Source: a bacterium (GTDB lineage Bacteria; Acidobacteriota; Blastocatellia; HR10). Taken from it: a DNA stretch of 62,878 nucleotides. Under the pieces are notes generated by a model. The model was given only the letters and a program-made list of their open reading frames with translations, did no database searches and was not told the origin of the DNA. Both the position numbers and the translations under genes were made by a program. Shown piece by piece: positions 3,270 through 61,474 of the stretch. The stretch spans positions 1 through 62,878 of the forward strand of contig JBEPZV010000011.1 of assembly GCA_041640655.1 (NCBI GenBank). The letters run 5' to 3'. Numbering within the stretch: the stretch's first letter is position 1; each line of letters begins with the position of its first letter.

Positions 3270-3797
3270 TCACGGCTGATTCTCATCCAGGCAGCGCCGC
3301 AACAGCTCGCGCCGCTCTGCCTCCGTCGTGACGCGGTCGAGCGCCGGATAGAGGATGTTTCGCTCGCGCAGATCGTGATGCTCGACCAGATGTTTGAACA
3401 TCGTTTGCTCGTCGAAGAGCCGGATGATCCGCCGTCGAAGGTCGGGCGGATGTGTGTCCAGTTCCGCGAGCGTCGCATGAAATCGCTCGAGGAATTCCCG
3501 CATCTTTCGATGTTCGCCGAGGAACAGCTCGATGGGGCCTCCGGGAATCGCGCCCGCGCGCGCGTAGACGGGCAGCAGGATGTCCTCCTCCGAGCGCATG
3601 TGCGCCAGCAGCGCGCGCTCATACGCCAGGAGTCGCTCCCGCGCTCGCGCGATGTCCTGCCCGAGCAGCGCCTCCTGATGCTCCGCGAACAACTCGTTCA
3701 ATCGCTCATGCACGCGAAGCAGCGCGAGGAAACTCGGCGCGCGCGCCTCGGTGCCGGGAACGTCCTCCGAGATGGCGAGCTTCTCCTCATGCGACAT
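3270..3797 (-). CDS. Hemerythrin/HHE domain protein (second, divergent copy)
   Basis: Motifs VHERL, HMRSEEDILLP, EHRKM and HHDLRERNILYP. Confidence 0.85.
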   Translation of the reverse strand: MSHEEKLAISEDVPGTEARAPSFLALLRVHERLNELFAEHQEALLGQDIARARERLLAYERALLAHMRSEEDILLPVYARAGAIPGGPIELFLGEHRKMREFLERFHATLAELDTHPPDLRRRIIRLFDEQTMFKHLVEHHDLRERNILYPALDRVTTEAERRELLRRCLDENQP

Positions 3798-3807
3798 ATC
3801 GGCCTCC

Positions 3808-5640
3808 TCACACGGAGAATGCTTCGCGAGATTCCGACGTCGAAGCGCGCGCCTTCTGCTCGGCTTCGATCAGCGCCATGAGATCCGCGAGCAATCGGTT
3901 CAGGTCCGCACCTTCGCGCCGACAGGCTTGCTCCAGCGTCACGACGCGCGCCATCGTGCGCCGCAGGACGGGATTTTGAAGCGGCGCGAATCCATGTCGC
4001 AGGAAGATGTCGAGCGCCTGCGGATACCGCTTGAGGACATCGGCGACCGTCGTCTGTGGCCCGAGGACGAGCGGCTCGGAAGACGCGCCCGCAAGGGCTT
4101 CGCGCTCCAGCCGCTTCCCGACGCGCATGTTCTGCACGAGCTCATATCCCCACAGGGCCAATCCGGCCACCTCGATGAATCCCGTGACGCGCATTGCAGC
4201 GAAGGCAGCCGCTGCGTAATCGGTCGCGATCTCCGTCCCGACGCGAAGGGCGTTGCCGACATTGAGCAGCACGAACGTGGGCCAGAGCGCCGACGCGCGC
4301 CGCACGTCCACGCCTGAGAGCGTCGGCACGACTTTGCTCGACACGCCGACGATCATCATCGTGATGAAGCCGACCGTCAGCGCATGCCGATACGCGCCGA
4401 AGAAGGCGTGCGAGAACGGCACGGCGGCTCCCGTGAGCGGTTGATAGAGGAGCAGGTTGTAGACGGGCGTGAGCGCCAGCATGGCCATCGCCACGATGAA
4501 CCAGACGTAGGCCGCGCGGATGAATTTCAACCCGCGATCGCGCTCGCTCTCGGGGACGGGGCCGAAGAGGCGATACTGACGGGGCGTCCCTACGGCGATG
4601 GTGAGCAGCAGCAGTGCAGCGATCTCTTGCCCGATCAGCCATCGGGAATCGCGCGCGAGCATGCCCGCGAGAAACGCCAGGATGCCGAGCGCAATGGCGC
4701 CATTCGCTCCCCAAAGCGAGAATCGCCGCCAGCGAGGCGTCGGCTCGCGCAGCGCATACGCGTGCGGCAGAAAGCGCAGCGAGACGCCGAGGATCATGAC
4801 CACGGCGATCCCCAGAAGCTGAACGTCTCGATAGGGGATATTGAACGTCGCCACGCGGAACAGAAACGCCTCGCGCGTCGGCGCCGTCTCGAAGAGCCAG
4901 AAGATGACGGGATCGGCCACCGCCGCGAGCAGGAACCAGAAGAGCGCCGATCGGATGAAGCTATCATACGGTTCGGGTCGCGCGGCCTGTCGCAGCGTCT
5001 GTCGCATCACCCAGGCGAAGAGCGCGACGGCCAGCGCTTGCACGGCGCCGGCCACAAGGCCGAGCGCCAGAAACGGCGCGCGCGGCGCCCCGAGGTGCGC
5101 GATCGCTTGCAGCGCGAGGCCTGCGGCCATCATCGGCAGCGTCGCCAGCGCCAGCGTCGGCCGCCAGAGAGTCGCGTGCTTGAACCGCGGGAATGCCTGA
5201 TAGGCGAAGCCCATGATGAAGAAGCCGACCACGCCGAAGACCATCGCATGCCCGTGCGCGAGGATCCACGAGTAGTCCACGCCGGCGAAGTGCTGCCGCG
5301 TTCCGATGAGCCAGAGATTCACAGCCCCCCACACGCAGCCGAGCGTGAAGAGCGTCAAGAGCCCGGCCAGGAAGAACGGCCGATAGATCGTATCAGCGCG
5401 CGTGGGACGATAGACGATCTCACCGACCGGCCCTTCGCTTTTGGCAGCCGCATTCAACTCCTCGAGCAACCGATCGAGTGGCACGCCGTGCAGACGCGCG
5501 AACCACGCGATCGTCTCGCGCGGGCCTTCCGGGCCGCCGCAGCCGCGCAGCCCATACCGGTCGAGCACCGCGCGCGTGGCCGGAAAGCGCCGGATCATCT
5601 CCGGCACGAGCATCTCCGCCGTGATGCGTCGTTCGCTCAT
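3808..5640 (-). CDS. NnrS-family membrane protein with N- and C-terminal DUF1858/ScdA_N-like domains
   Basis: N-terminus FPATRAVLDRYGLRGCGG...FARLHGV; membrane core with HGHAMVFG and RHALTVGF; C-terminus VADVLKRYPQALDIFLRHGF...TLEQAC. Confidence 0.8.
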   Translation of the reverse strand: MSERRITAEMLVPEMIRRFPATRAVLDRYGLRGCGGPEGPRETIAWFARLHGVPLDRLLEELNAAAKSEGPVGEIVYRPTRADTIYRPFFLAGLLTLFTLGCVWGAVNLWLIGTRQHFAGVDYSWILAHGHAMVFGVVGFFIMGFAYQAFPRFKHATLWRPTLALATLPMMAAGLALQAIAHLGAPRAPFLALGLVAGAVQALAVALFAWVMRQTLRQAARPEPYDSFIRSALFWFLLAAVADPVIFWLFETAPTREAFLFRVATFNIPYRDVQLLGIAVVMILGVSLRFLPHAYALREPTPRWRRFSLWGANGAIALGILAFLAGMLARDSRWLIGQEIAALLLLTIAVGTPRQYRLFGPVPESERDRGLKFIRAAYVWFIVAMAMLALTPVYNLLLYQPLTGAAVPFSHAFFGAYRHALTVGFITMMIVGVSSKVVPTLSGVDVRRASALWPTFVLLNVGNALRVGTEIATDYAAAAFAAMRVTGFIEVAGLALWGYELVQNMRVGKRLEREALAGASSEPLVLGPQTTVADVLKRYPQALDIFLRHGFAPLQNPVLRRTMARVVTLEQACRREGADLNRLLADLMALIEAEQKARASTSESREAFSV

Positions 5641-5713
5641 ACTCCCCTCCTTTCGCCCGCTGCCGCGCGGGCGCTCACCTGTCGCGCTCGCGTGCCGCGG
5701 GCTTCGACGCGAA

Positions 5714-5956
5714 CTATTTCGGCTTGCCCATCTCGCGGGCGATCCCAGGAGCGCCTTCGGTCGGCATCGGGGCGGGCCGTCGTTCGCCCAACCATTGATC
5801 GTCCATCATGGGCAGGGCCACGCTCCGACCGAGATCGCCGAAGCTCTCTTTGAGCGCCGCGCCGCCGAACTTCTCCGCGATCTTATGCCGGAGGTAGAGC
5901 ACACCGCCGATGATGAGCCCGACGATCGCGAGCACGATGAGGAGCGCGATCATCAT
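5714..5956 (-). CDS. Small single-pass membrane protein (80 aa), function unknown
   Basis: SD GGGGAGG/GAGG before ATGATG; one N-terminal TM helix; first ORF behind the promoter at 6019-6063. Confidence 0.65.
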   Translation of the reverse strand: MMIALLIVLAIVGLIIGGVLYLRHKIAEKFGGAALKESFGDLGRSVALPMMDDQWLGERRPAPMPTEGAPGIAREMGKPK

Positions 5957-6018
5957 CCTCGTCGCCTCCCCGTTTGCATTTGCGAAGCCTGCATGATCTT
6001 CCTGAAATCCACGTTCAG

Positions 6019-6063
6019 AGCATACCCGACGCCGCTCGGGCCGCGCGGTGACTTAGGTCACAG
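6019..6063 (-). promoter_or_regulatory. CRP/FNR-family box (TGTGACCTAAGTCACC, 6047-6062) plus -10 TATGCT (6019-6024); internal promoter for the small ORF-nnrS-hemerythrin-ywiC genes
   Basis: TGTGA-N6-TCAC palindrome; ungapped 32/45 match to 8415-8459 with identical spacing. Confidence 0.75.
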
Positions 6064-6070
6064 GCGTGGC

Positions 6071-8374
6071 CTATCCGAGGGGCCCAAGCGGCACGACCTC
6101 CGGGAGACGTTCTGGCGCCTCCGCCCGCGCCAGGCGATAGGTCCGCAACGCGGCGAGCACCAGCGGCACCACGCCCAGCCCGATGAAGATGAGATCGGCC
6201 GGCAAGCGCAACCATTCGATCCGCCGCATCAATGGTTGATTGAGGAATTCCAGACTGCGCGCGTGCGCGTAGCCGTTCCTGAGCACATCCAGAAGCTGGA
6301 GCACGCCGCCGGGGAAGAGATTCAACACGACCATGAGCGCCAGCCCGACGTTCAAGCCCCAGAAGGAGAGGCGAACCAGCGGCTCGACCGTTGCCCATCG
6401 CTCTTCGGTGAGGACTTGCCGCAGCGCGAAGACCAGGAGGGCCACGGCCAGCATCCCGAAGACGCCCATCATCGCCGCATGTCCGTGATTGGGCGTCAGG
6501 AGCGTCCCCACTTCAAAGTAGCTGACGATGGGCAGATTGATCAGGAACCCGAATATGCCGGCGCCGACGAAGTTCCAGAAGCCGACGGCCATCAGGAAGT
6601 AGAACGTCCAGCGATGCGGGACCGAGACCGGATGATTGCAGACGTCGCACCGTTGGCGCGTCAGTTTGACGAAGTCCCACGCATCGAGCGTGAGCAGCGT
6701 CAGGGGGATCACCTCCATCGCCGAGAACGTCGCGCCGAGCGCCATCGTGATGTGCGATTGCCCCGTCCAGTACCAGTGATGCCCCGTCCCCACGATCCCG
6801 CTCCCCAGATACAACAGCGCATCCAGGTAGACGACGCGCGCCGCCGTCGTGTGCGAGACCAATCCGAGCCGATAGAAGATCGCCGCGACCATCACCGTGA
6901 CGAACAGCTCGAAGAATCCCTCGACCCACAGGTGGATGATCCAGAAGCGCCACGTATCCACGACCGAATAATGGCTTCGGCCGGTGAAGAACATCGCCGG
7001 CAGGTAGAAGAGCGGGATGGCCACGGCCGCATAGAGGAAGAGCGACAGAATCTCGCGACGCTCGGGATCCGATCGTGCCGGCGCGATCGTTCGGAAGAGC
7101 AGCGCGAGCCACATGATCAGTCCCGCCGCCAGCAGCATCTGCCATGCGCGCCCGAGGTCCAGATATTCCCACCCTTGATGCCCGAACCAGAACCAGAGCC
7201 GACCGATGAGCCGATGAATGCCGAGGAATTCCCCGAGCAAGCTCCCCACGGCGACGAACACGAGCGCGACAAACAGAAGATTGATCCCGCGCACCTGACG
7301 GCTCGGCTCATGTCCGCTCAGGGCCGGAGCTAGGAAGAGGCCTCCGGCGATGTAAGCCGTCGCCACCCAGAAGATGGCCAGTTGCAGATGCCACGTCCGC
7401 AGGATGTGGCTCGGAAGCCAGCGCGAGAGGTCCAGGCCGTAGAAACTCGCGGGATCGGCCCGATAGTGCGCGACGGCACCGCCGACCAAGACTTGCGCCA
7501 GAAAGAGGAGTGCGACGATGACGAAGTATTTGAGCACGGCGCGCTGGCCAGGCGTCGTCTGACCCGGGATGAGCTGCGGATGCGCATGGCCTTCGCGCCC
7601 TCGCCATCCGAGATAATCGAACCTGCCGAAGGCGAAGAGGACGGCCGCCAATCCGCCCAGAAGCGCGATCAAGCTGAGCGCGCTCCACAGCACGGCTTCG
7701 CTCGTCGGCGTGTTCCCCACCGCCGGATCATAGGGGAAGTTGTTCGTGTAGGAATACGTCCGGCCGGGACGCGGTGCCACCGACGCCCACGCCGTCCACG
7801 CGAAAAAGGCCGTCAAGCGCCGCAACTCTTCCCAATCGCGAATGTAGGTAGCCGGTAATCCCATGTTCCGCGTCGGATGCGAGAAGTAGTCAGCCCAGCG
7901 CTCGATCTGCCGCTCATAGGAGTGCGCTTCCGGCTCGGTGAAGATCAGGACGCGGCGCTCCGGATCGTAGCGATTCTGCTTGAGGAGCCGGGGGACTTCG
8001 GCTCGAACGGCTGCTGCTTCCGACTCGGTGAGCGCCGCGAGATCGCGCCCGAAGCGCTGGCGGGCGATCCACGCCGCCGCATCCTCGCCGAGCGCGCGCA
8101 AGGACTCGGCCGAGAAGTCCGGCCCTAAATACGCCCCATGCCCCCAGATCGTCCCGTTCTCCATCAAGCCGTATTTCAAGAAGACCTCTTGCCCCCCCAG
8201 AATGTCCTCGCGCGTGAAGAGGACGCGGCCGCTGGGGTCCACCACCTGTTCGGGAATCGGCGGCGCGTCTTTGTACGCCTTCGCCGCCAGGGCGATCAGG
8301 ACCGTGAACCCACCGATCAGAACCAGTATGACGGCATGTCGCCACCACGGCGATAAGCGAGTTTCACTCATCAT
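6071..8374 (-). CDS. norB: Quinol-dependent nitric oxide reductase (qNor)
   Basis: Motifs GTIWGHGAYLGPDF, YTNNFPY, RTWHLQ, WIIHLWVEGFFE, GTGHHWYW, SAMEVIP and NHGHAAMMG; all heme/FeB ligands and conserved Glu residues are present. Confidence 0.95.
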   Translation of the reverse strand: MMSETRLSPWWRHAVILVLIGGFTVLIALAAKAYKDAPPIPEQVVDPSGRVLFTREDILGGQEVFLKYGLMENGTIWGHGAYLGPDFSAESLRALGEDAAAWIARQRFGRDLAALTESEAAAVRAEVPRLLKQNRYDPERRVLIFTEPEAHSYERQIERWADYFSHPTRNMGLPATYIRDWEELRRLTAFFAWTAWASVAPRPGRTYSYTNNFPYDPAVGNTPTSEAVLWSALSLIALLGGLAAVLFAFGRFDYLGWRGREGHAHPQLIPGQTTPGQRAVLKYFVIVALLFLAQVLVGGAVAHYRADPASFYGLDLSRWLPSHILRTWHLQLAIFWVATAYIAGGLFLAPALSGHEPSRQVRGINLLFVALVFVAVGSLLGEFLGIHRLIGRLWFWFGHQGWEYLDLGRAWQMLLAAGLIMWLALLFRTIAPARSDPERREILSLFLYAAVAIPLFYLPAMFFTGRSHYSVVDTWRFWIIHLWVEGFFELFVTVMVAAIFYRLGLVSHTTAARVVYLDALLYLGSGIVGTGHHWYWTGQSHITMALGATFSAMEVIPLTLLTLDAWDFVKLTRQRCDVCNHPVSVPHRWTFYFLMAVGFWNFVGAGIFGFLINLPIVSYFEVGTLLTPNHGHAAMMGVFGMLAVALLVFALRQVLTEERWATVEPLVRLSFWGLNVGLALMVVLNLFPGGVLQLLDVLRNGYAHARSLEFLNQPLMRRIEWLRLPADLIFIGLGVVPLVLAALRTYRLARAEAPERLPEVVPLGPLG

Positions 8375-9870: not shown

Positions 9871-9999
9871 ATCGGCAAACCGACGGTCTGCTGCGACGCG
9901 GTTCGCACGCGATCCACCCGCTCGTCTCAGGTGCACCTTGCCCCCTTGATGCATCCGAACATAGAATTAACCAGGCGCAATCAGAGGGAGGGGGACGGG

Positions 10000-11319
10000 A
10001 TGTTCGGGCGACGAGGAGAGGACCAATGGCAAGCCATCCTCGACGCTATGGAGGATGGCGTGATGATCATTGATCGGAACTTCTGGATCATCGGTTTCAA
10101 TGAGGCAGCTGCTCGGATCACCGGATACCGGAAGGAAGAAGCGCTCAACTCCCGCTGCTTCGAAGTCTGCGCCGGTCGGTATTGCAAAGAGGATTGCGAT
10201 GTGACGGCGCTCTTCACGACCGGGCGCCCGTGCGAGGAATTCGAGACGACGATTCGGACGAAAGACGGACGGACGCGCATCGTTCGCGTTCACACCGTCG
10301 CCTTGCGTGATGGAACGGGAGCGATCACCGGCGCTCTGCGTATCCTGCGTGACGTGACCGAGATCCGCGAGTTAGAGCGGCGGCTGCGCGAGCCGGAGCG
10401 CTTCGGCCGTCTGGTCGGCAAAAGCCGGGCGATGCAACAGGTCTATCGGCTCATCGAGCTGCTCCGGGATTCGACGGCCACGGTCCTCATCCATGGCGAG
10501 ACGGGCACGGGCAAGGAGCTGGTCGCCGAAGCCATTCATTTCAACAGTCCGCGCGCCGGCGGGCCTCTCATCAAGGTGAATTGCGCCGCGCTCCCCGATC
10601 CCCTTGTGGAAGACGAACTGTTCGGACATGTGCGCGGCGCGTTCACCGATGCCGTCTCCGATAAACCGGGACGGATCGAGTTGGCCAACGGGGGGACGCT
10701 CTTCCTCGACGAAGTGGGGGACCTCGGCCCGTCCGCTCAGGCGAAGCTCTTGCGCGTTTTGGAGACGGGAGAGTTCGAGCGCCTGGGCGATCCGCGAACG
10801 CGCCGCGTGCAGGTTCGGATCATCGCAGCGACCAACAAGGACCTGCGCGCGGCCGTCGCCGAGCATCGCTTTCGCGAAGACCTCTTCTTCCGGCTCAATG
10901 TCGTCCCGATCTTCCTGCCGCCGCTGCGGGAACGCCTGGAGGATCTCCCGCTTCTGGCGGAGCATTTCCTGGAGCGAGTGCGACGGACGACGGGGCGCGA
11001 CCTCCGCCTGGGGCACGATGCGCTGCGTGCGATGATGCGCTACCGATGGCCCGGCAATGTGCGCGAGCTGAAGAATGCGCTCGAATACGCGGCCATCGTC
11101 TGCGAAGGGACGACGATCCATGCGACCGATCTCCCCGCCGGTATTCACGAATCCTCCTCGGAGGGGCTCCTGCCCGCCGAAGTCACGAGCGAGCCCGTCC
11201 GATTGCGTGCCGCCTTGGAAGCCTGCAACTGGGAGATCACACGCTGCGCCGAACTCCTCGGCATCGATCGCTCGACCCTGTGGCGGAAGATGAAACGCTA
11301 TGGCATTCGTCGCCCCTGA
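10000..11319 (+). CDS. Sigma-54-dependent activator (PAS + AAA+ + Fis-type HTH)
   Basis: Motifs GETGTGKE, GAFTDA, LFLDEVG, FREDLFFRLNV, WPGNVREL and LGIDRSTLWRK; the PAS domain carries CFEVCAGRYCKEDC. Confidence 0.92.
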   Translation: MFGRRGEDQWQAILDAMEDGVMIIDRNFWIIGFNEAAARITGYRKEEALNSRCFEVCAGRYCKEDCDVTALFTTGRPCEEFETTIRTKDGRTRIVRVHTVALRDGTGAITGALRILRDVTEIRELERRLREPERFGRLVGKSRAMQQVYRLIELLRDSTATVLIHGETGTGKELVAEAIHFNSPRAGGPLIKVNCAALPDPLVEDELFGHVRGAFTDAVSDKPGRIELANGGTLFLDEVGDLGPSAQAKLLRVLETGEFERLGDPRTRRVQVRIIAATNKDLRAAVAEHRFREDLFFRLNVVPIFLPPLRERLEDLPLLAEHFLERVRRTTGRDLRLGHDALRAMMRYRWPGNVRELKNALEYAAIVCEGTTIHATDLPAGIHESSSEGLLPAEVTSEPVRLRAALEACNWEITRCAELLGIDRSTLWRKMKRYGIRRP

Positions 11320-16513: not shown

Positions 16514-16604
16514 GCCGGAGTGGCGGAATTGGCAGACGCGCCAGACTCAAAATCTGGTGGCCGTTGGCACGGCCGTGTCGGTTCGACTCCGACCTCCGGC
16601 ACCA
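16514..16604 (+). tRNA. tRNA-Leu(CAA)
   Basis: Acceptor GCCGGAG/CTCCGGC-A-CCA; anticodon arm CCAGA-CTCAAAA-TCTGG; long variable arm; GGTTCGACTCC. Confidence 0.97.
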
Positions 16605-16818: not shown

Positions 16819-16893
16819 TGGAGCGGGCGACGGGATTCGAACCCGCAACACTCAGCTTGGGAAGCTGATGCGCTACCGTTGCGCCACGCCCGC
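16819..16893 (-). tRNA. tRNA-Gly(CCC)
   Basis: Reverse complement reads GCGGGCG...TCAGC-TTCCCAA-GCTGA...GGTTCGAATCCC...CGCCCGC-T-CCA, 75 nt. Confidence 0.97.
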
Positions 16894-19260: not shown

Positions 19261-19758
19261 ATGAGCGCGCGCCGCTGGCGACCGTCGGTGCGCGGCCTCG
19301 CGCACTCGTCGTTGCTGCTCTGGCTGCTTCTGGTGCTCGTCTCCGCGCACGTTTATTTCTCGGCCCGCGCGCTGAAGGGGGAAGATGTCGGGATGACGCC
19401 AGCCGCCACGTCCGCAGCATCTTCGGAGTCCGCTGAAGAGGCGCTTCTGAAGGACCTGGAGCGCTTGCCGAAGCTCACGTTCCTCGCCACCGCCTATGCC
19501 CTTCCCGGACAGACGGCCTCGGGCGAGAACGTACGTGCGGGGATCGTCGCGGCCGATCCGGACATCTTACCCATCGGCTCGATCATTCACATCTCGGCGG
19601 GCCGGTATTCGGGAGTTTACACCGTGCTCGATACGGGGCTGAAGATTCGTGGGCGGATGCTCGATATCTGGATGCCGACGCCGCAGGAGGCGCGAGCCTT
19701 CGGCGTGCGCCGCGTGACAGTGCGTGTTCTCCGATGGGGATGGGGCTCCTCCCGATAA
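19261..19758 (+). CDS. 3D (Asp-Asp-Asp) domain cell-wall protein
   Basis: N-terminal TM segment; motifs ATAY, TASG, VAADP, LDTG and LDIW. Confidence 0.85.
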
Positions 19759-19783
19759 CCGAGGGCACACGCGGCGCGCACGT

Positions 19784-21865
19784 TCATCCGAGGTCCTCAT
19801 CCACGCGATAACGATGGCGCCACTCGGCCAGAAGGCCGTGATTCCAGGTGGAGAGGCGACTGAAGGCCTGCGCGCCGAGAGCCAGGCCGTCCAGGCGCGA
19901 GCTGTGACAATGCGGACACTGCCGATGAAGTCCACGGACGCAGCGTCCGCAATCCAGGCAGAGGGTGAAGTCGGGCGCGGGCAGCAGGCCCGCCGAATGC
20001 GTCTGGAAGAATCCGCGTGAGACCAGGGCCACCAGCGGCTCGATCGCCGTCGCTCTCTCGCTCAACCAGATTGGGGTCGTGACGCCGAAGATCCCCAGAT
20101 CGTGCAGCAGCCCCTCGATGCGCACGCGCTCCAGGGCGCGCACGCTGGCATGCGGCAGGACTTTGAAGGGGCGACTGTAGTACACGTCCCCCTTCTCGAC
20201 GTCTCCGGAGACCGTCTCGGTGGCGCGCGCGGCGAAGGGCGAACGCACATCCAGGCGCGCCAGTCGGTGCGCGGCCATCTCGTCGGTCGAATCCGCCACG
20301 ACAAATCGAACCTTATGCTTGTCGCTCAGGCGTTCGGCCTCGCGCACCAGATGCGTGGCGATGCGCAACGCCATCTCCACCGCCTGATCCGACTCGTGCA
20401 GATGCTGCCCCGTGAGCAGCCAGACCGTCTCGTCCAGCCCGAAGGGACAGATGAGATGCGTCGTCCAGGTGAGCTTCAGAAACGTCGTCTCCGGATGGCG
20501 CACGGCTAAAAGCGCCAGCGGCCCGGTTTCACCGAGCGCCATCAGCTTCTCCAAGAAGATGCGTTTCTCCAGATGAGCCTGGGCGACCAGCTCCATCACC
20601 TCGGTGAGCTGCTGCAGAAAGGCGAGCAGATCTCCATCGGCGCGATACCCCAAGCGCGGGAGATTCACCGCGACGGCTTGAAGCACGGCCGTGCGCCACT
20701 GCCACGTCTGAGCGCGCTCATGGCTGGGCCCAAACGGGACGCTGAATCGCGAGAAGAAGCTCCCCGACGGATCGCGATCGAAGACCAGGCGCACGCCTCC
20801 GCGCTCCGCCAAGACGTGGCACAAGAGGTCCAGGAACTCGCGATACCCCTCGATCCTCGTGAAGTGCTCGGTCAAATGCAGCACCAGACGAGGGGTGAGG
20901 AAGGGGCGTCCCCGTCCATCGCCCTCTCGATACACATCCAGGAGTTGGAGGAGGAAACGGCGCGCGATCTCGCCGTAGGCGGCGTACGTCTCTCCGGTCT
21001 CCTCCCCGTGAGGACCGAGAGCCGGACGATGGGCCAAATACGCGGGCACTTCCCAATCCACATGGACCTCGCAGGCGATGACCTGCCCGCCGCGAGCCAC
21101 GGCCGGTGCGGACAGCTCGAACAGGAGCAGTTGCGCCAACTGTCGCAGATCGCGATCTTCTGCGTCCCGCAGATACGGCGCGAGCGCCACATTGAGACTG
21201 TCCCAGATGACCGGTCCGGCCAAGTATCCGTGAAGGGCCGCCGAGAATTTCACCAGGTGCGCCAGCAGCACTTCGGGATGCCGCGCCGGACGCGCGCTGG
21301 CGAATCCGTGTGGCAAAGCGATGCCGTAGCGCTTCAGGTAATCCAGGGAGCTGGTGATGGCGTAGGGGCGATCCACAGCCCCCAGGCCCTGAATATGAAT
21401 CCCGCCGGTCAGATGCGCCTCCGCGACGGCCTCGGAGAAGACCTCGCGAATCGCATACTCCCGCTTGATGGCTTCGGCCAGCAGGAGGCTCGTGCCCTCC
21501 GGACCATGCGGGGGCGCTTCGCGCTCACGCGCGCTTTGCCGGATGAGGCGATCGGCGTCATAGAGCGGAACGCCCAAGCGCGAATGCGCGCGATGCGCCG
21601 CCTCCAACCCGTACTCCAGCAGCTTCACGTTCACCAACTCGCGAATGAGCGCGGAGCTGAGCGCGCGAATGCCCGCGCGCGCGATCGCTTCGGTGACCTC
21701 CGCGCTGATCTTCGTCGCCAGCTCCACGTCCACATGCGCTTCGCGGACCAGGGCGTCCACGATGCGCTGGGGATCGAACCGCGCGACTTGCTCATCCGAG
21801 CGGCGGACGTAAAGCTCCGGTTCCGCGTGCGCCCCCTGTTGTGACCACGGCTCTTCCCGCTCCAT
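19784..21865 (-). CDS. Class III ribonucleotide reductase (NrdD) homologue with ATP-cone, apparently catalytically inactive
   Basis: ATP-cone (VRRSDEQVARFDPQRIVDALVRE), NrdD core (AHLTGGIHI, VNLPR) and Zn-finger CxxC...CPxC are present, but there is no RxxGY glycyl motif and no catalytic Cys. The start could be 21919. Confidence 0.85.
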   Translation of the reverse strand: MEREEPWSQQGAHAEPELYVRRSDEQVARFDPQRIVDALVREAHVDVELATKISAEVTEAIARAGIRALSSALIRELVNVKLLEYGLEAAHRAHSRLGVPLYDADRLIRQSAREREAPPHGPEGTSLLLAEAIKREYAIREVFSEAVAEAHLTGGIHIQGLGAVDRPYAITSSLDYLKRYGIALPHGFASARPARHPEVLLAHLVKFSAALHGYLAGPVIWDSLNVALAPYLRDAEDRDLRQLAQLLLFELSAPAVARGGQVIACEVHVDWEVPAYLAHRPALGPHGEETGETYAAYGEIARRFLLQLLDVYREGDGRGRPFLTPRLVLHLTEHFTRIEGYREFLDLLCHVLAERGGVRLVFDRDPSGSFFSRFSVPFGPSHERAQTWQWRTAVLQAVAVNLPRLGYRADGDLLAFLQQLTEVMELVAQAHLEKRIFLEKLMALGETGPLALLAVRHPETTFLKLTWTTHLICPFGLDETVWLLTGQHLHESDQAVEMALRIATHLVREAERLSDKHKVRFVVADSTDEMAAHRLARLDVRSPFAARATETVSGDVEKGDVYYSRPFKVLPHASVRALERVRIEGLLHDLGIFGVTTPIWLSERATAIEPLVALVSRGFFQTHSAGLLPAPDFTLCLDCGRCVRGLHRQCPHCHSSRLDGLALGAQAFSRLSTWNHGLLAEWRHRYRVDEDLG

Positions 21866-22007
21866 ACGCCCCACCGTCCCCGAGGATCGCTCGGCCTCTT
21901 CCTCCCGTTGGCCGTCCATCCTAACGCACTGCGCCCTTCGATTCAAGAGGCCGGCCGACTATAATAGGCTCGATGCGCGAAGTCGGTGGCATCGGAGGAC
22001 CGACATC

Positions 22008-23528
22008 ATGAGCGTGCGCGTGCGATTCGCGCCGAGTCCCACGGGACACCTGCACGTCGGGAACGTGCGGACGGCGCTCTACAACTGGCTCTTCGCGCGG
22101 CAGCATCGCGGGGCGTTCATCCTGCGCATAGAGGACACGGATCCGGAGCGCTCGCGCCGTGAATATGAAGTGCAGATTCTGGACGATTTGCGATGGCTCG
22201 GCCTGGATTGGGATGAGGGTCCGGATGTCGGTGGCGACTTCGGCCCCTATCGGCAGAGCGAGCGCCTGGCGCTTTATCGCGACTATGCGCATCGGCTGCT
22301 GGAGGCTGGATGGGCCTATCGTTGCTTCTGCACGGAAGAAGAGCTGGAGCGCGAGCGCGCGCAAGCCCGAGCCGAGGATCGTCCCTATCGCTACTCGGGT
22401 CGGTGTCGTCAGCTCTCGGAGGAAGAGGTGCGCGAGCGCGTGAAGGCTGGACTCCCCCACACGCTTCGATTCCGCGTGCGGCCGGGGCCCATCGTGTGGG
22501 AAGACGTCGTGCGCGGTCCCATCCGATGGGAGGCCGAGGTCATCGGCGATTTCGTCATCGTGAAGTCCGACGGCTGGCCCGTCTACAACTTCGCCGTCGT
22601 CGTGGATGACCTGCTCATGCGCATCACGCATGTCATCCGCGGCGATGGCCATCTGCCGAATACCCCTCGGCAGCTTCTGCTCTATGAGGCGCTGGGCGCG
22701 ACGCCTCCGGTCTTCGCGCATCTGTCGACCATCCTCGGCGCCGATGGCACAAAGCTCTCCAAGCGACACGGAGCCACGGCGCTGCGCGAGTTCCGCGAAC
22801 AGGGGTATTTGCCCGAAGCGCTCTTCAACTTCCTCGCTCTGCTCGGCTGGGCGCCCCCGCAAGAGATCGGAGAACTGCTCTCACGGGAGCAACTGCTGGA
22901 GCTGTTTGCCCTGGAGAAGGTCTCCAAGGCTCCGGCCATCTTCGACCTGCAGAAGCTCAAGTGGATGAACCGCGCGTATCTGAAGGCCAAGCCGCTGGAG
23001 GAGCTGGTGACTGCCGTCGCCCCCTATCTGCAACAGGCGGGGCGCGTGCCCACTCCGCTGGATGAGGCGACGCGAGCCTGGTTGCAGCGCGTCGTGGAGG
23101 CGGTGCTCACACACCTGGAGCATCTCTCGCAGATCGTCGAAGAGACGCGCATCATCTTCGAATACGATCTCTGGACCGCACTCACCTATCCCGAGGTGCG
23201 TGAGGTCCTGGAGGATGCGGGCGCGTTGGACGTCCTTCGGCGGATGGAGCGGGAACTGGCCGACGTCCCCGCGGTCACGACCGAGGCGTTTCGCGAGGCC
23301 GCAGCTCGCGTTCGCGAGCAGACCGGACGCAAAGGGCGCGCGCTCTTCCACCCCATTCGAATCGCGCTCACGGGTCGCCCCTCGGGACCGGAACTGGATA
23401 AGCTGGTCCCGATTTACGAGATCGGCGCGACGCTCCCCCTCCCGCGACCGATCCCCTCCGTGCGCGATCGCCTCCGGCAATTCCTCGAATGGGCCGAGCG
23501 CGTGCGCGCTGAATCGCCTTCGCGCTGA
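22008..23528 (+). CDS. gltX: Glutamate--tRNA ligase
   Basis: Motifs RFAPSPTGHLHVGN, LRIEDTD and KLSKR. Confidence 0.96.
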   Translation: MSVRVRFAPSPTGHLHVGNVRTALYNWLFARQHRGAFILRIEDTDPERSRREYEVQILDDLRWLGLDWDEGPDVGGDFGPYRQSERLALYRDYAHRLLEAGWAYRCFCTEEELERERAQARAEDRPYRYSGRCRQLSEEEVRERVKAGLPHTLRFRVRPGPIVWEDVVRGPIRWEAEVIGDFVIVKSDGWPVYNFAVVVDDLLMRITHVIRGDGHLPNTPRQLLLYEALGATPPVFAHLSTILGADGTKLSKRHGATALREFREQGYLPEALFNFLALLGWAPPQEIGELLSREQLLELFALEKVSKAPAIFDLQKLKWMNRAYLKAKPLEELVTAVAPYLQQAGRVPTPLDEATRAWLQRVVEAVLTHLEHLSQIVEETRIIFEYDLWTALTYPEVREVLEDAGALDVLRRMERELADVPAVTTEAFREAAARVREQTGRKGRALFHPIRIALTGRPSGPELDKLVPIYEIGATLPLPRPIPSVRDRLRQFLEWAERVRAESPSR

Positions 23529-41227: not shown

Positions 41228-42514
41228 TCACTGAAGGCCGTAAATCTTCAATCGGAACTCATCGCTGACCAGCTTGATCTCGGGGCGAATGCCCGAGAAG
41301 TGCTGGGCGACATGCAGCAGCATCGGCACCCCCCCGGTCACGGTCTCCAGTCCGTAGTACGGGCTCTTGAAAATCCCCTTCAGCCGAGGATGGGGGGCGT
41401 TGACGACGCCGTAGCAGATGGGATCGAGGGCGACCCCACTTGTGCGCATCGGATTGATCAGCTCGATGCGATCATCGAAGATGAGCAATCGCGTCACCTG
41501 GTCGCGCGCGCTGTAATCCCGATGCACCAGGGCATTGGTGAGGGCTTCGAGTACCGCCGCGCGGGGGTAACGCGCGCGCGGCGCGACTGGGGATCGCTCC
41601 GACCATCGGCGCAGCGGACGCTCCTGGAGTAAATCCGCGTAGCGCTCCACGAACCGCAACGCCCGCTCGTAGACGTTGGCGAGATTCCCCACGATCTCCT
41701 CCCGCTCGACGATGGGATCGGTGATGTCCACCCCGCCGAAGCGCGTCGCCACAATGCCGCTGCGCGGCAGATGCGCCGCGACCCGCTCATCCTTCCCGAA
41801 GAGCAGCAGCCCGGCGAGCGTCGGGACGCTCTCGTGCTCGAACGCGACCGCCAACTGCAGATAATGGATCATGACCTCGTCCACGGGATACCCATGCTCC
41901 TCGAACTCGCTCAGGTCCCCCCCGCGCACCCCCCGCACATAGCTCCAGAAGACGGCCTCATCAATATCGTCGAGCGTCGCTGTGGTGATCGGCAGCAACT
42001 CGAAGCCATATGAGTGGCGGGGATCATACATCTCGGCGATCTCCTCGGCCGTCGCCTCTCGCTTAGTCGAGCCCACGCGCACGTAGCACCGATGATCGAA
42101 CGTCCGGTAGGGCCGATGCAGGCCGCTCACTTCCAGCGCCACGATGCGCTTGCCGTTGTCGAAGGCGATCTTGTTGATCTGCGGACGAATCGGCGGGATG
42201 ACAAGTCGCCGGCAGACGTCAATGAGCTGCTGTTCGACCCATTCGGGATCATCCACCCCCTCGACGCGCCGATTGTCGTTGACGCCGATGATGATGAACC
42301 CTCCGCCCGAATTGGCGAGCGCCACGATCTCCGCCGCGAGCTTCTCCGGGTTGTTCAAGCGCACCTTGAACTCGACGTAGCTGTCCTCCCCCCCTTGGAT
42401 GAGGTTGAGCAGCTCGGTTCGATCCAGGAGGACATGCTCCTCGAAATACTGCTGCGCGAAGAAGGAGCGTGTGGAGCTGGGCACATGCCGGTTGCGGAAT
42501 CGTCTCCTTCCCAT
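41228..42514 (-). CDS. AlbA_2 (Schlafen-like) + HATPase_c_4 domain protein
   Basis: N-domain GEDSYVEFK...IVALANSGGGFIIIGV and YVRVGST; C-domain EALTNALVHRDY and FDDRIELINP; no C-terminal HTH. Start uncertain. Confidence 0.85.
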   Translation of the reverse strand: MGRRRFRNRHVPSSTRSFFAQQYFEEHVLLDRTELLNLIQGGEDSYVEFKVRLNNPEKLAAEIVALANSGGGFIIIGVNDNRRVEGVDDPEWVEQQLIDVCRRLVIPPIRPQINKIAFDNGKRIVALEVSGLHRPYRTFDHRCYVRVGSTKREATAEEIAEMYDPRHSYGFELLPITTATLDDIDEAVFWSYVRGVRGGDLSEFEEHGYPVDEVMIHYLQLAVAFEHESVPTLAGLLLFGKDERVAAHLPRSGIVATRFGGVDITDPIVEREEIVGNLANVYERALRFVERYADLLQERPLRRWSERSPVAPRARYPRAAVLEALTNALVHRDYSARDQVTRLLIFDDRIELINPMRTSGVALDPICYGVVNAPHPRLKGIFKSPYYGLETVTGGVPMLLHVAQHFSGIRPEIKLVSDEFRLKIYGLQ

Positions 42515-42697
42515 GGGCCGCCCTCGCGCCTGAAGACGCGCCATCGGACGCGACCCGCCCGATGCCGTCTTCGATGGAATGTCCATGCTGCATGCACAGG
42601 GAGAATATACACGATCCCCGACCGCCGGCGCAAAAATTTTCCCTCCGAGGGGGGTGAACGCCTCAAGGCTCGGGGATGCGCTGCGCGATCCGCCCGC

Positions 42698-60085: not shown

Positions 60086-61474
60086 ATGAAGAGTCTGGAA
60101 TTCGTCGAACTGGACCTGCTTCGGAAATACGATCGACCGGGACCGCGCTACACGAGTTATCCTCCGGCTCCGGCCTTCACGCCGGAGTTCGGACCGGAGG
60201 AGTTCCGGCGCGCCATTGTGGAGAACAACGTCGCACGGGCGACCGCCGATCTCTCGCTCTATGTTCATATCCCGTTTTGCGATACGCTCTGCTACTTTTG
60301 CGGCTGCACGATGTTGGTGACGCATCGGCCCGAGACGATCCGAAAGTACCTGGATCATCTGGAGCAGGAGATCGCCATGCTGCGCGCCTGGATCGCTCCC
60401 GAGCGAAAGGTCACGCAACTGCACTGGGGAGGCGGTACCCCTTCCTACTTGCGCCCGGAGGAGATCCGCGAACTGGCCGGATTCATCGCCGAGCGCTTCC
60501 CCTACGCGGAGGATCCCGAGATCGGCGTGGAGATTGATCCGCGCGGGCTCACCGTCGAGCACATGCGGGCCTTTCGCGAGAGTGGGTTCAATCGGGTGAG
60601 CATGGGCGTGCAAGATTTCGACCCCATGGTCCAGCAAGCCGTCAACCGCATCCAACCGGAGGAGGTCACGCGCCGCGCTCTCGAGTGGGCGCGCGAGCTG
60701 GGCTTCCGCAGCATCAACCTGGACCTCATCTACGGCCTTCCCTTCCAGACGCTTGATTCCTTCGCGCGCACGTTGGAGACGGTGATCGAGCTCTCCCCCG
60801 ATCGGCTCGCTGTCTTCAACTTCGCGTACGTGCCGTGGCTCAAGCCGCATCAGCGGTTGATCCGACCGGAGGACCTTCCCCCGCCGGAGACGAAGCTGCG
60901 GTTGCTGAAGTTGACCATCGAGACCTTGAGCCAGGCCGGATATGTCTACATCGGCATGGATCATTTCGCGAAGCCGGAGGACGAGCTGGCGCGCGCGCAA
61001 CGGGAGAAGACGCTCTATCGCAACTTCCAGGGCTACTCGACGCGCGCCGGCGCTGACCTCTATGCCTTCGGCATGTCGGCCATCAGTCAGTTCGATCGCA
61101 TCTACGCGCAGAACTTCAAAGAGCTGAAGGCGTACTATGCCCGGATCGAGGCCGGGACACCGGCGACGGCGCTCGGGTACCGGCTGACGGATGATGACGT
61201 CGTGCGCCGCCACGTCATCATGCGGCTGATGTGCGATATGGAGCTGACGAAGGCCGACGTGGAGCGAACCTTCGGCATCCGCTTCGATGAGTATTTCGCC
61301 GATGCGCTCCCGAAGCTGGAGGAGTTCGTCGCCGATGGCCTGCTGCGAATCACCGAGGAGAAACTCATCGTCACGGATCTCGGCCGGTTGGTCATCCGCA
61401 ACATCGCCATGTGCTTCGATGCGCACCTGGAGCGGATGATGCGCGAGCGGCCGATCTTCTCGCGAACCGTGTGA
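60086..61474 (+). CDS. hemN: Oxygen-independent coproporphyrinogen III oxidase
   Basis: Motifs GPRYTSYP, CDTLCYFCGC, GGGTP and RNFQGYS. Confidence 0.96.
   Translation: MKSLEFVELDLLRKYDRPGPRYTSYPPAPAFTPEFGPEEFRRAIVENNVARATADLSLYVHIPFCDTLCYFCGCTMLVTHRPETIRKYLDHLEQEIAMLRAWIAPERKVTQLHWGGGTPSYLRPEEIRELAGFIAERFPYAEDPEIGVEIDPRGLTVEHMRAFRESGFNRVSMGVQDFDPMVQQAVNRIQPEEVTRRALEWARELGFRSINLDLIYGLPFQTLDSFARTLETVIELSPDRLAVFNFAYVPWLKPHQRLIRPEDLPPPETKLRLLKLTIETLSQAGYVYIGMDHFAKPEDELARAQREKTLYRNFQGYSTRAGADLYAFGMSAISQFDRIYAQNFKELKAYYARIEAGTPATALGYRLTDDDVVRRHVIMRLMCDMELTKADVERTFGIRFDEYFADALPKLEEFVADGLLRITEEKLIVTDLGRLVIRNIAMCFDAHLERMMRERPIFSRTV

Follow-up and report, generated by a model that had tools for sequence, protein, structure and literature searches.

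Few enzymes have been studied as intensively as the ribonucleotide reductases (RNRs), and to our knowledge every known RNR depends on a cysteine thiyl radical. Among the class III enzymes (NrdD), structures have been solved for those of P. copri (8P23), S. thermophilus (9D3X), T. maritima (4COI/4U3E), and phage T4 (1HK8). For the P. copri enzyme, passages of PMC11226230 set out the roles of the NxN flap, the HxHD motif, the loop bearing the bridging Glu, and the Tyr that follows the radical Gly; they also describe a specificity-site hairpin and a dATP-bound tetramer in which helix 458-485 is touched by the ATP-cone's roof and forms its docking surface. We analysed a stretch of 62,878 nucleotides (hereafter the window) from a bacterium of the Blastocatellia (Acidobacteriota; contig JBEPZV010000011.1, assembly GCA_041640655.1), which carries a gene for an NrdD-like protein at 19784..21865 on the minus strand. 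By its sequence, this protein is unable to carry out radical ribonucleotide reduction and is not a reductase. It is a member of an old NrdD paralogue family that extends across the Blastocatellia, and we are highly confident that it is both radical-dead and under selection. As to its function, the reading we favour, with a confidence that is at most about even, is that the protein binds nucleotides without catalysis and serves as a sensor or regulatory subunit.

The gene comprises 693 codons plus a stop and is uninterrupted by stop codons. An earlier note, made from the letters of the window alone, had described it as an intact open reading frame (ORF) of ~693 amino acids (aa) with an ATP-cone, an NrdD core, and a zinc finger, and both the translation and Pfam bear this description out. 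The frame opens with an ATG at 21865, with a purine-rich GGTGGGG lying 6 nt before the start; upstream GTG and TTG codons provide alternative starts, and the longest ORF begins at the TTG at 21946. A promoter and terminator scan of positions 19600-22100 gave no signal above chance. In Pfam, residues 119-685 matched NRDD (PF13597; E 4.4e-67) and residues 19-93 matched the ATP-cone (21587..21811 on the minus strand, as are all features within the gene given below; E 7.7e-07), the first strand of which reads VRRSDE. A Cys4 zinc ribbon, CLDC...CPHC, is formed near the C-terminus by C636, C639, C650, and C653 (19907..19960) and is invariant in A1. Against the NCBIfam equivalog model for NrdD (TIGR02487), the protein scored 197.9 bits, below the cut-off of 326.35.

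Structure prediction placed the protein in the class III fold. The AlphaFold2 model, built from a 146-sequence alignment, reached a mean predicted local distance difference test score (pLDDT) of 93.2 and a predicted template modelling score (pTM) of 0.91, with a pLDDT of 92-97 in the C-terminal zinc/hairpin domain. In Foldseek searches of this model against the PDB, the leading hits were all class III reductases, headed by the P. copri structures 8p23 and 8p2s (E about 1e-28; template modelling (TM) score 0.68-0.74) and followed by the enzymes of S. thermophilus, T. maritima, and phage T4, with class I enzymes far lower. Pfam, the AlphaFold2 model, and Foldseek thus agree on an NrdD-type alpha/beta barrel with a finger loop, and a look-up in the ESM Atlas found only clusters named NrdD.

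Radical and substrate residues were located by aligning the protein with the best 150 of 1813 relatives (E<=0.001) recovered from 1.84 billion cluster representatives. Forty-nine of these 150 carry RxxGY near the C-terminus and serve as the canonical set. At the former glycyl-radical loop (residues 663-667; 19865..19879), the window protein reads L-G-A-Q-A against the canonical R-x-x-G-Y. In the alignment with the 49 canonical representatives, the radical Gly column falls on Gln666 (codon 19868-19870), whereas alignment with the P. copri NrdD opens a one-residue gap at the loop and sets the radical Gly opposite Ala665; the RxxGY motif is absent in either register. Residues 664-667 lie at the tip of a hairpin in the AlphaFold2 model. 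The strand-A Cys, found in 48 of the 49 canonical sequences, is replaced by Ala169 (21359..21361), turning DRPYC into DRPYA. The finger-loop segment (residues 365-390; 20696..20773) is free of Cys, in contrast to canonical enzymes, which read SE-CC-RL or NC/GC at this point and have a Cys or Cys-Cys in the column without exception (49/49).

The substrate-binding motifs have degenerated along with the radical residues. Both Asn of the NxN flap (residues 108-120; 21506..21544), present in 47/49 canonical representatives, have given way to Arg115 and Ala117, and across the 80 family loci introduced below, no more than two have Asn at either column, with insertions and deletions in the same region. 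The HxHD triphosphate motif (residues 157-160; 21386..21397) is reduced to H-I-Q-G. The PAE loop reads Thr-Asp-Glu instead of Pro-Ala-Glu (Glu529 in 49/49 canonical representatives), and in the YYTNS motif Arg-Pro stands for Asn-Ser (Asn565 in 49/49). The four zinc Cys, which all 49 canonical representatives possess, were retained. Since the glycyl site, the thiyl Cys, and the strand-A Cys are gone and the substrate motifs are degenerate, no reductase activity should be possible. The strings that had been quoted from the translation at the outset (CLDC...CPHC, GLGAVDRPYA, FDRDPSGSFFSRFSV, and DGLALGAQAFSRLSTWNHGLLAE) are all present, and three readings drawn from them agree with our columns: the replacement of the radical Gly by Gln at codon 19868-19870 (in the canonical-representative alignment, Ala665 taking its place in that with P. 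copri), the Cys-to-Ala change at 21359-21361, and a finger loop in which the canonical Cys or Cys-Cys column falls in a Cys-free stretch.

We then considered the family at large. One genome per species was scanned, yielding 174 genomes with a relative, from which the best 80 loci (46-98% identity) were kept. A separate word-indexed search produced 1512 matches; the best 120 of these are 49-100% identical and about 690-710 aa long, and the named ones belong to Blastocatellia or Acidobacteriota. The nearest loci are those of Bacterium HR10 (98%), HR08 (94%), and three metagenome-assembled genomes (MAGs; 81-83%), the MAGs sharing the gene order of the window. The loss of radical residues is common to the family. 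Column 169 holds Cys in none of the 80 loci, being Thr in 30, Ser in 27, Ala in 16, and another residue in seven. The finger-loop segment is Cys-free in 72/80, and the remaining eight have a single Cys elsewhere in the segment. Among the 70 loci that cover the radical loop, Gly occupies column 666 in three and Tyr column 667 in two; Gly is found at column 664 in 10/70 and at column 665 in 22/70, and no position of the loop keeps it. The NxN, HxHD, and PAE columns also vary over the 80 loci. The zinc Cys are retained, in 70/70 covering loci at columns 650 and 653 and in 70/72 at columns 636 and 639, and no Cys other than these is invariant across the 80 loci.

These distributions bear directly on the possibility that the protein is still a working class III reductase, in which a nearby Gly (Gly664) would carry the radical, a Cys would be supplied from elsewhere in the protein, and a distant activase would serve it. 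Such a reading can point to Gly664, which opens the predicted hairpin tip (664-667), and to the 22 of 70 loci with Gly at column 665. It has to contend with a loop that conserves no Gly, a finger-loop Cys missing from 72/80 and a strand-A Cys missing from 80/80 loci, degenerate substrate motifs, a score below the NCBIfam cut-off, and the lack of NrdG in the related complete genomes listed in the passages of PMC12816986 discussed below. We regard it as highly improbable. The specific escape route named in the earlier note, that the G of LGAQA might be the radical Gly, meets the same objections, the column of Gly664 being Gly in only 10/70.

Two further observations concern the composition of the family. 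Cys265 (codon 21071-21073) and Cys473 (codon 20447-20449) recur in 59/80 and 57/80 loci, respectively, and are not found in canonical NrdDs, which have Ser and Gly at these columns. Thirteen loci (L005, L016, L018, L024, L030, L040, L045, L049, L051, L058, L064, L070, and L073) come from MAGs labelled 'uncultured Clostridia', 'Heliobacteriaceae', or 'Heliomicrobium'. Their genes are 46-53% identical to that of the window and rank among the Blastocatellia loci, L005 standing out with 81% identity and the gene order of the window; the labels of these 13 MAGs look wrong.

Selection on the gene was gauged from the ratio of nonsynonymous to synonymous substitution rates (dN/dS). Pairwise NG86 estimates between the window gene and its five closest orthologues (L001-L005) gave dN/dS of 0.08-0.14 at dS of 0.14-0.87. 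A control run, in which each ORF was taken from its BLAST hit, returned 0.10-0.15 for the window gene, compared with 0.08-0.12 for gltX, 0.02-0.06 for the H+-pyrophosphatase (H+-PPase) gene, and 0.13-0.24 for the 3D-domain gene. Divided by part, the same run gave 0.09-0.21 for the ATP-cone, 0.11-0.15 for the core (residues 101-625), and 0.11-0.15 for the C-terminal domain. The window gene is under purifying selection, on a par with gltX. A decaying pseudogene that has stayed open by chance has nothing in its favour beyond the loss of catalytic residues, and it is effectively excluded, its probability being next to nil, because dN/dS is low (0.08-0.15 over both runs, equal to gltX) and intact orthologues persist in 80 species-level genomes; the confident model (pLDDT 93) is a further point against it.

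The family is also long diverged from canonical NrdDs, a conclusion that stands on both identity and phylogeny, since the nearest canonical representatives (P0123-P0128, all with a double-Cys finger loop) are only 41-44% identical to the window protein, and the family forms a separate, well-supported clade. In a quick, unrooted FastTree reconstruction of 101 sequences, which does not separate one loss from several, the window family resolved as a well-supported clade of 19 rows, and all 12 canonical sequences fell in a distinct clade of 18 rows. Other groups included a 46-row clade lacking the C-terminal domain and several small groups in which the cysteines are missing but the zinc ribbon persists. 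The proposal of a candidate RNR pseudoenzyme retained for another role therefore holds up well: the loss of catalytic residues is common to the orthologues, purifying selection acts on the coding sequence, and the divergence is old. The check suggested at the time, whether the dead substitutions recur in orthologues, came out positive across the 80 loci, and its opposite, a recent pseudogene among catalytically intact close orthologues, is contradicted by a dN/dS of 0.08-0.15 and by orthologues that are dead as well. What needs correcting is the description of the change as several point losses. The frame is indeed free of stops, but at 41-44% identity, and with 197.9 bits against a cut-off of 326.35, the departure from canonical NrdDs goes well beyond that.

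The window family is not alone in this respect. Seventy-two of the 150 best representatives lack both cysteines, and of these 22 keep the zinc ribbon and 48 are without the C-terminal domain; a radical-less NrdD homologue is thus not a rare oddity. Prominent among them is a second Cys-less NrdD-like family (P0146, P0155, P0158, P0162, and about 45 more representatives) of about 750-770 aa, which has neither the strand-A nor the finger-loop Cys and has shed the whole C-terminal zinc/glycyl-radical domain. Its members have an N-terminal extension of about 150 residues with a strong ATP-cone, make up the separate, well-supported 46-row clade, and, where the organism is named, belong mostly to Candidatus Hydrogenedentes/Hydrogenedentota. 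A loss comparable to that in the Blastocatellia, and perhaps independent of it, is seen in this lineage. Length also separates the groups, with 34 of the 49 canonical representatives, as against none of the 72 Cys-less ones, exceeding 900 aa. In the long sequences that we inspected among the closest canonical NrdDs (P0125-P0128, P0131, P0133, P0135, P0137-P0139, and P0148), the strand-A Cys or the finger-loop Cys is immediately preceded by a long intein-like insert; Pfam matched an intein in P0125, the one sequence of these that was scanned.

Our literature search, which was thin on subscription journals and did not extend to supplements, found no published NrdD without radical residues and no RNR-derived pseudoenzyme, and the passages of the RNR phylogeny papers PMC9669993 and PMC9531940 mention no radical-less NrdD. 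The only printed mention of such a protein that we came upon is the listing of an NrdD-like paralog in Chloracidobacterium species, including C. aggregatum, in Table 1 of PMC12816986. This paralog probably belongs to the same family, and a Chloracidobacterium MAG among our loci (L021) encodes a protein 50% identical to that of the window. The passages of PMC12816986 record the presence of the paralog only and are silent on residue loss, conservation, and function.

If catalysis has been lost, the pattern of conservation should indicate what has been kept. Conservation was expressed per segment as the mean frequency of the commonest residue, which averages 0.66 in the family and 0.52 in the canonical set. 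The most conserved stretch of the family is AQAHLEKRIFLEKL (residues 428-441; 20543..20584), at 0.94 against 0.50 in canonical NrdDs, and the first core helix (residues 121-138) likewise reaches 0.94. These are followed by the strand HLDW (0.90), the first strand of the ATP-cone and the linker RLGVPLYD (both 0.89), the loop-2-like motif SAPAVARGGQ (residues 252-261; 21083..21112; 0.87), and the hairpin with RPAR (residues 178-199; 21271..21334; 0.80). The segments of the former active site occupy the other end of the scale: finger loop 0.54, PAE loop and residues 594-598 both 0.49, Gly loop 0.48, and NxN flap 0.41. Canonical NrdDs show the reverse order (YYTNS 0.98, Gly loop 0.82, HxHD 0.76, PAE loop 0.74), a comparison that holds for the rank of segments and not for absolute values, as the family sample comes from one bacterial class and is narrower than the canonical one.

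Several of the best-conserved segments correspond to parts of the allosteric apparatus in NrdD. Pfam matched an ATP-cone in 23 of 24 family members (E<=0.01), and V20, R21, S23, D24, and E25 of the cone are invariant in A1. R258, G259, and Q261 are conserved in both the family and canonical NrdDs, and SAPAVARGGQ may accordingly be read as a putative loop 2. In sequence alignment, residues 178-199 line up with the part of the P. copri NrdD (8p23) that contains the specificity-site hairpin, and residues 428-441 with its outer helix 458-485, the surface on which the ATP-cone docks. Because selection best preserves the parts that in genuine NrdDs are concerned with nucleotide sensing and signalling, while the former active site drifts, a sensor would be the most economical mechanism. 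We suggest that the ancestral allosteric apparatus, namely the ATP-cone, the linker with the first core helix, the specificity-site-like hairpin, the loop-2-like motif, and the outer helix, would be the working part of the protein. It would bind ATP or dATP, and possibly deoxyribonucleoside triphosphates (dNTPs) more generally; binding would change its conformation or oligomeric state; and the protein would thereby act as a sensor of the nucleotide pool, or as a regulatory subunit, in cells whose dNTPs come from a class I reductase (NrdAB) and sometimes from class II. Of the roles offered in the earlier note, an ATP/dATP sensor would likewise be the best fit, with the ATP-cone and specificity-site-like elements among the most conserved parts.

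The same residues can be read otherwise. In a neofunctionalised enzyme, the NrdD barrel would have been re-used to catalyse a reaction without radicals, on a substrate that might or might not resemble a nucleotide, with the ATP-cone still regulating it. Consistent with this, the core is strongly constrained throughout by purifying selection (dN/dS 0.11-0.15, residues 101-625), and some family-specific residues that are invariant or nearly so stand in or near old active-site elements (Arg373, Gly375, His268, Asp270, Trp271, and FDR). The lining of the old substrate site is, however, the least conserved part of the protein (0.41-0.49), which would be unusual for a re-used catalytic pocket. The gene neighbourhoods, taken up below, cut both ways. 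We consider this enzyme the main competitor but, on balance, a doubtful one.

Several points weigh against the sensor reading, in addition to the narrower sampling of the family. The role is assigned through conserved segments mapped onto P. copri by alignment. The ATP-cone is divergent, scoring 30 bits where Pfam sets its cut-off at 25.8, and precomputed Pfam annotation gives an ATP-cone for only a minority of family members. Conservation also extends to Arg373 and Gly375, located where the finger loop used to be, and to His268, Asp270, and Trp271; these five could mark a site for a new ligand or for catalysis, in which case the enzyme would gain ground. What we say of other reductases in the cell derives from related genomes in one paper rather than from the genome of the window itself, and the gene context names no partner, three clades having three different neighbourhoods.

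With respect to a partner or activase, no radical-SAM (S-adenosylmethionine) activase was found among the genes adjoining the NrdD-like gene, and the 62.9-kb window holds no NrdG and no other RNR gene. Downstream lie the genes for an H+-PPase and a 3D-domain protein; upstream lie a divergent gltX and genes for a 227-aa protein of unknown function, a DUF948 protein, and ileS. The statement that no nrdG adjoins the gene is therefore confirmed. The only radical-SAM protein in the window is of HemN type (60086-61471). Within 6 kb of the gene across the 80 loci, five ORFs contain CxxxCxxC, and only one of them, at L074, is a radical-SAM protein.

Dimers are the rule among NrdD enzymes, and their interface helices map to a well-conserved part of the window protein, as might be expected if it acted as a decoy for, or formed a heterodimer with, a genuine NrdD whose gene lies elsewhere in the genome. 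A homodimer prediction with two copies of the core (residues 105-600) scored 0.02, a value that weighs neither for nor against a dimer. For such a decoy to act, a working class III enzyme should be present, and no second NrdD was detected in the window or among the gene groups common to at least 12 of the 80 flanks. Table 1 of PMC12816986 (2026), as far as its available passages go, lists three Chloracidobacterium species with complete genomes that have the NrdD-like paralog and NrdAB but no NrdG, and in these a working class III partner seems to be absent. A decoy role, which had been among the earlier suggestions, is disfavoured on these grounds, and we judge it very unlikely.

The genomic context was compared across the loci. 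The window is a chromosomal stretch of 64.7% G+C rich in housekeeping genes, and in its clade the gene lies between gltX and the pair formed by the H+-PPase and 3D-domain genes. In a second clade, a divergent purN accompanies the gene in 14 loci and a DUF2227 gene lies downstream in 14, with carB-thiE upstream in two. The third clade shows the order thiE-thiD-gene-carB on one strand with near-zero gaps (L022-L080, e.g., L061-L063). In total, thiD lies directly upstream in 45/80 loci, thiE within 1.3 kb upstream in 13/80, and carB within 1.3 kb downstream in 29/80. Each neighbourhood is confined to one clade and maps to a single change on the protein tree (for thiD, 44 rows and one change), and the linkage to thiD is therefore to be counted once, as a single inheritance.

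These rows of biosynthetic genes speak to two of the alternatives. For the neofunctionalised enzyme, the operon-like arrangements in two of the three clades (thiE-thiD-gene-carB, or an adjoining purN) would be in keeping with a biosynthetic reaction, although each clade inherited its context a single time and the contexts are not the same from clade to clade. A scaffold or regulatory subunit acting on a specific partner, such as NrdA/NrdB, ThiD, or CarB, in which the sensing of nucleotides would be of minor weight or gone, would draw on the same linkages (thiD directly upstream in 45/80, carB close downstream in 29/80) and on the outer helix 428-441, whose top conservation (0.94) suggests a protein-protein surface. 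The thiD linkage, however, belongs to one clade and one event and is absent from the clade of the window, and no partner was identified; we hold such a scaffold to be unlikely, while the sensor remains our preferred reading. Gene context as a guide to function, with its hints of thiamine or nucleotide biosynthesis, was set aside as weak evidence, there being one arrangement per clade and a third in the clade of the window. A role in making the thiamine pyrimidine was dropped because the protein has no radical or catalytic residue. Rfam scans of the window and of 7 of the 80 loci detected no riboswitch, whether for thiamine pyrophosphate (TPP) or of another kind.

Some features lie apart from the NrdD-like gene. 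The only Rfam matches in the window are two tRNA genes, at 16514-16601 (plus strand) and 16822-16893 (minus strand), between the methylmalonyl-CoA mutase and H+-PPase genes. At L052, group II intron domains (RF02001 and RF01998) were detected at 21530-21819, about 5 kb downstream of carB. The window also contains a nitric-oxide cluster, at 3273-8374 on the minus strand and 9931-11316 on the plus strand, in which 6074-8374 encodes a quinol-type NorB joined to a cytochrome-c-like domain, 3811-5640 a fusion of NnrS with DUF1858, and 3273-3797 a hemerythrin; a PAS/sigma-54 activator is encoded nearby. Farther along, a 452-aa Schlafen AlbA_2 protein (41231-42586, minus strand) is encoded next to a TPR protein and an ORF of 220 aa that carries no annotation, and could be a defence-type or regulatory gene.

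Taken to its full extent, the sensor reading would make the window protein the first described pseudoenzyme of the RNR superfamily, one in which the allosteric machinery serves as a free-standing gauge of ATP, dATP, or dNTPs; this is a tentative claim that we rate well below an even chance. In aerobic Acidobacteriota, this gauge would govern the biosynthesis of nucleotides or cofactors, or the class I reductase. A widespread, selected NrdD homologue without radical residues would constitute a new functional branch of the superfamily and a natural experiment in what RNR allosteric modules do alone. At a practical level, the database name 'anaerobic ribonucleoside-triphosphate reductase' is misleading for these proteins, as it wrongly implies an anaerobic route to dNTPs in Blastocatellia and Hydrogenedentota genomes.

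Set beside the solved class III reductases, the window protein has the same domain order, consisting of an ATP-cone, an alpha/beta barrel core, and a C-terminal zinc ribbon with hairpin, and the same fold (Foldseek E about 1e-28; TM 0.6-0.75). It also shares with them FDR, NLPR, ARGGQ, RLARLD, and the WxxG..AEL..R that follows the loop. It differs in lacking the radical Gly motif, the thiyl Cys, the strand-A Cys, the NxN, HxHD, PAE, and YYTNS motifs, and a nearby activase. For how such a protein may work, the closest analogue is NrdR, which is composed of a zinc ribbon and an ATP-cone. The abstract of PMC9110341 describes NrdR as a nucleotide-sensing repressor of RNR genes. Like the window protein, NrdR combines an ATP-cone and a zinc ribbon; it has no catalytic activity, as we propose for the window protein, and it senses nucleotides through oligomerisation, as the window protein might. 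Unlike NrdR, which is small and binds DNA, the window protein has an NrdD barrel of roughly 540 residues between cone and ribbon; it is not a member of the NrdR family and shows no evidence of DNA binding.

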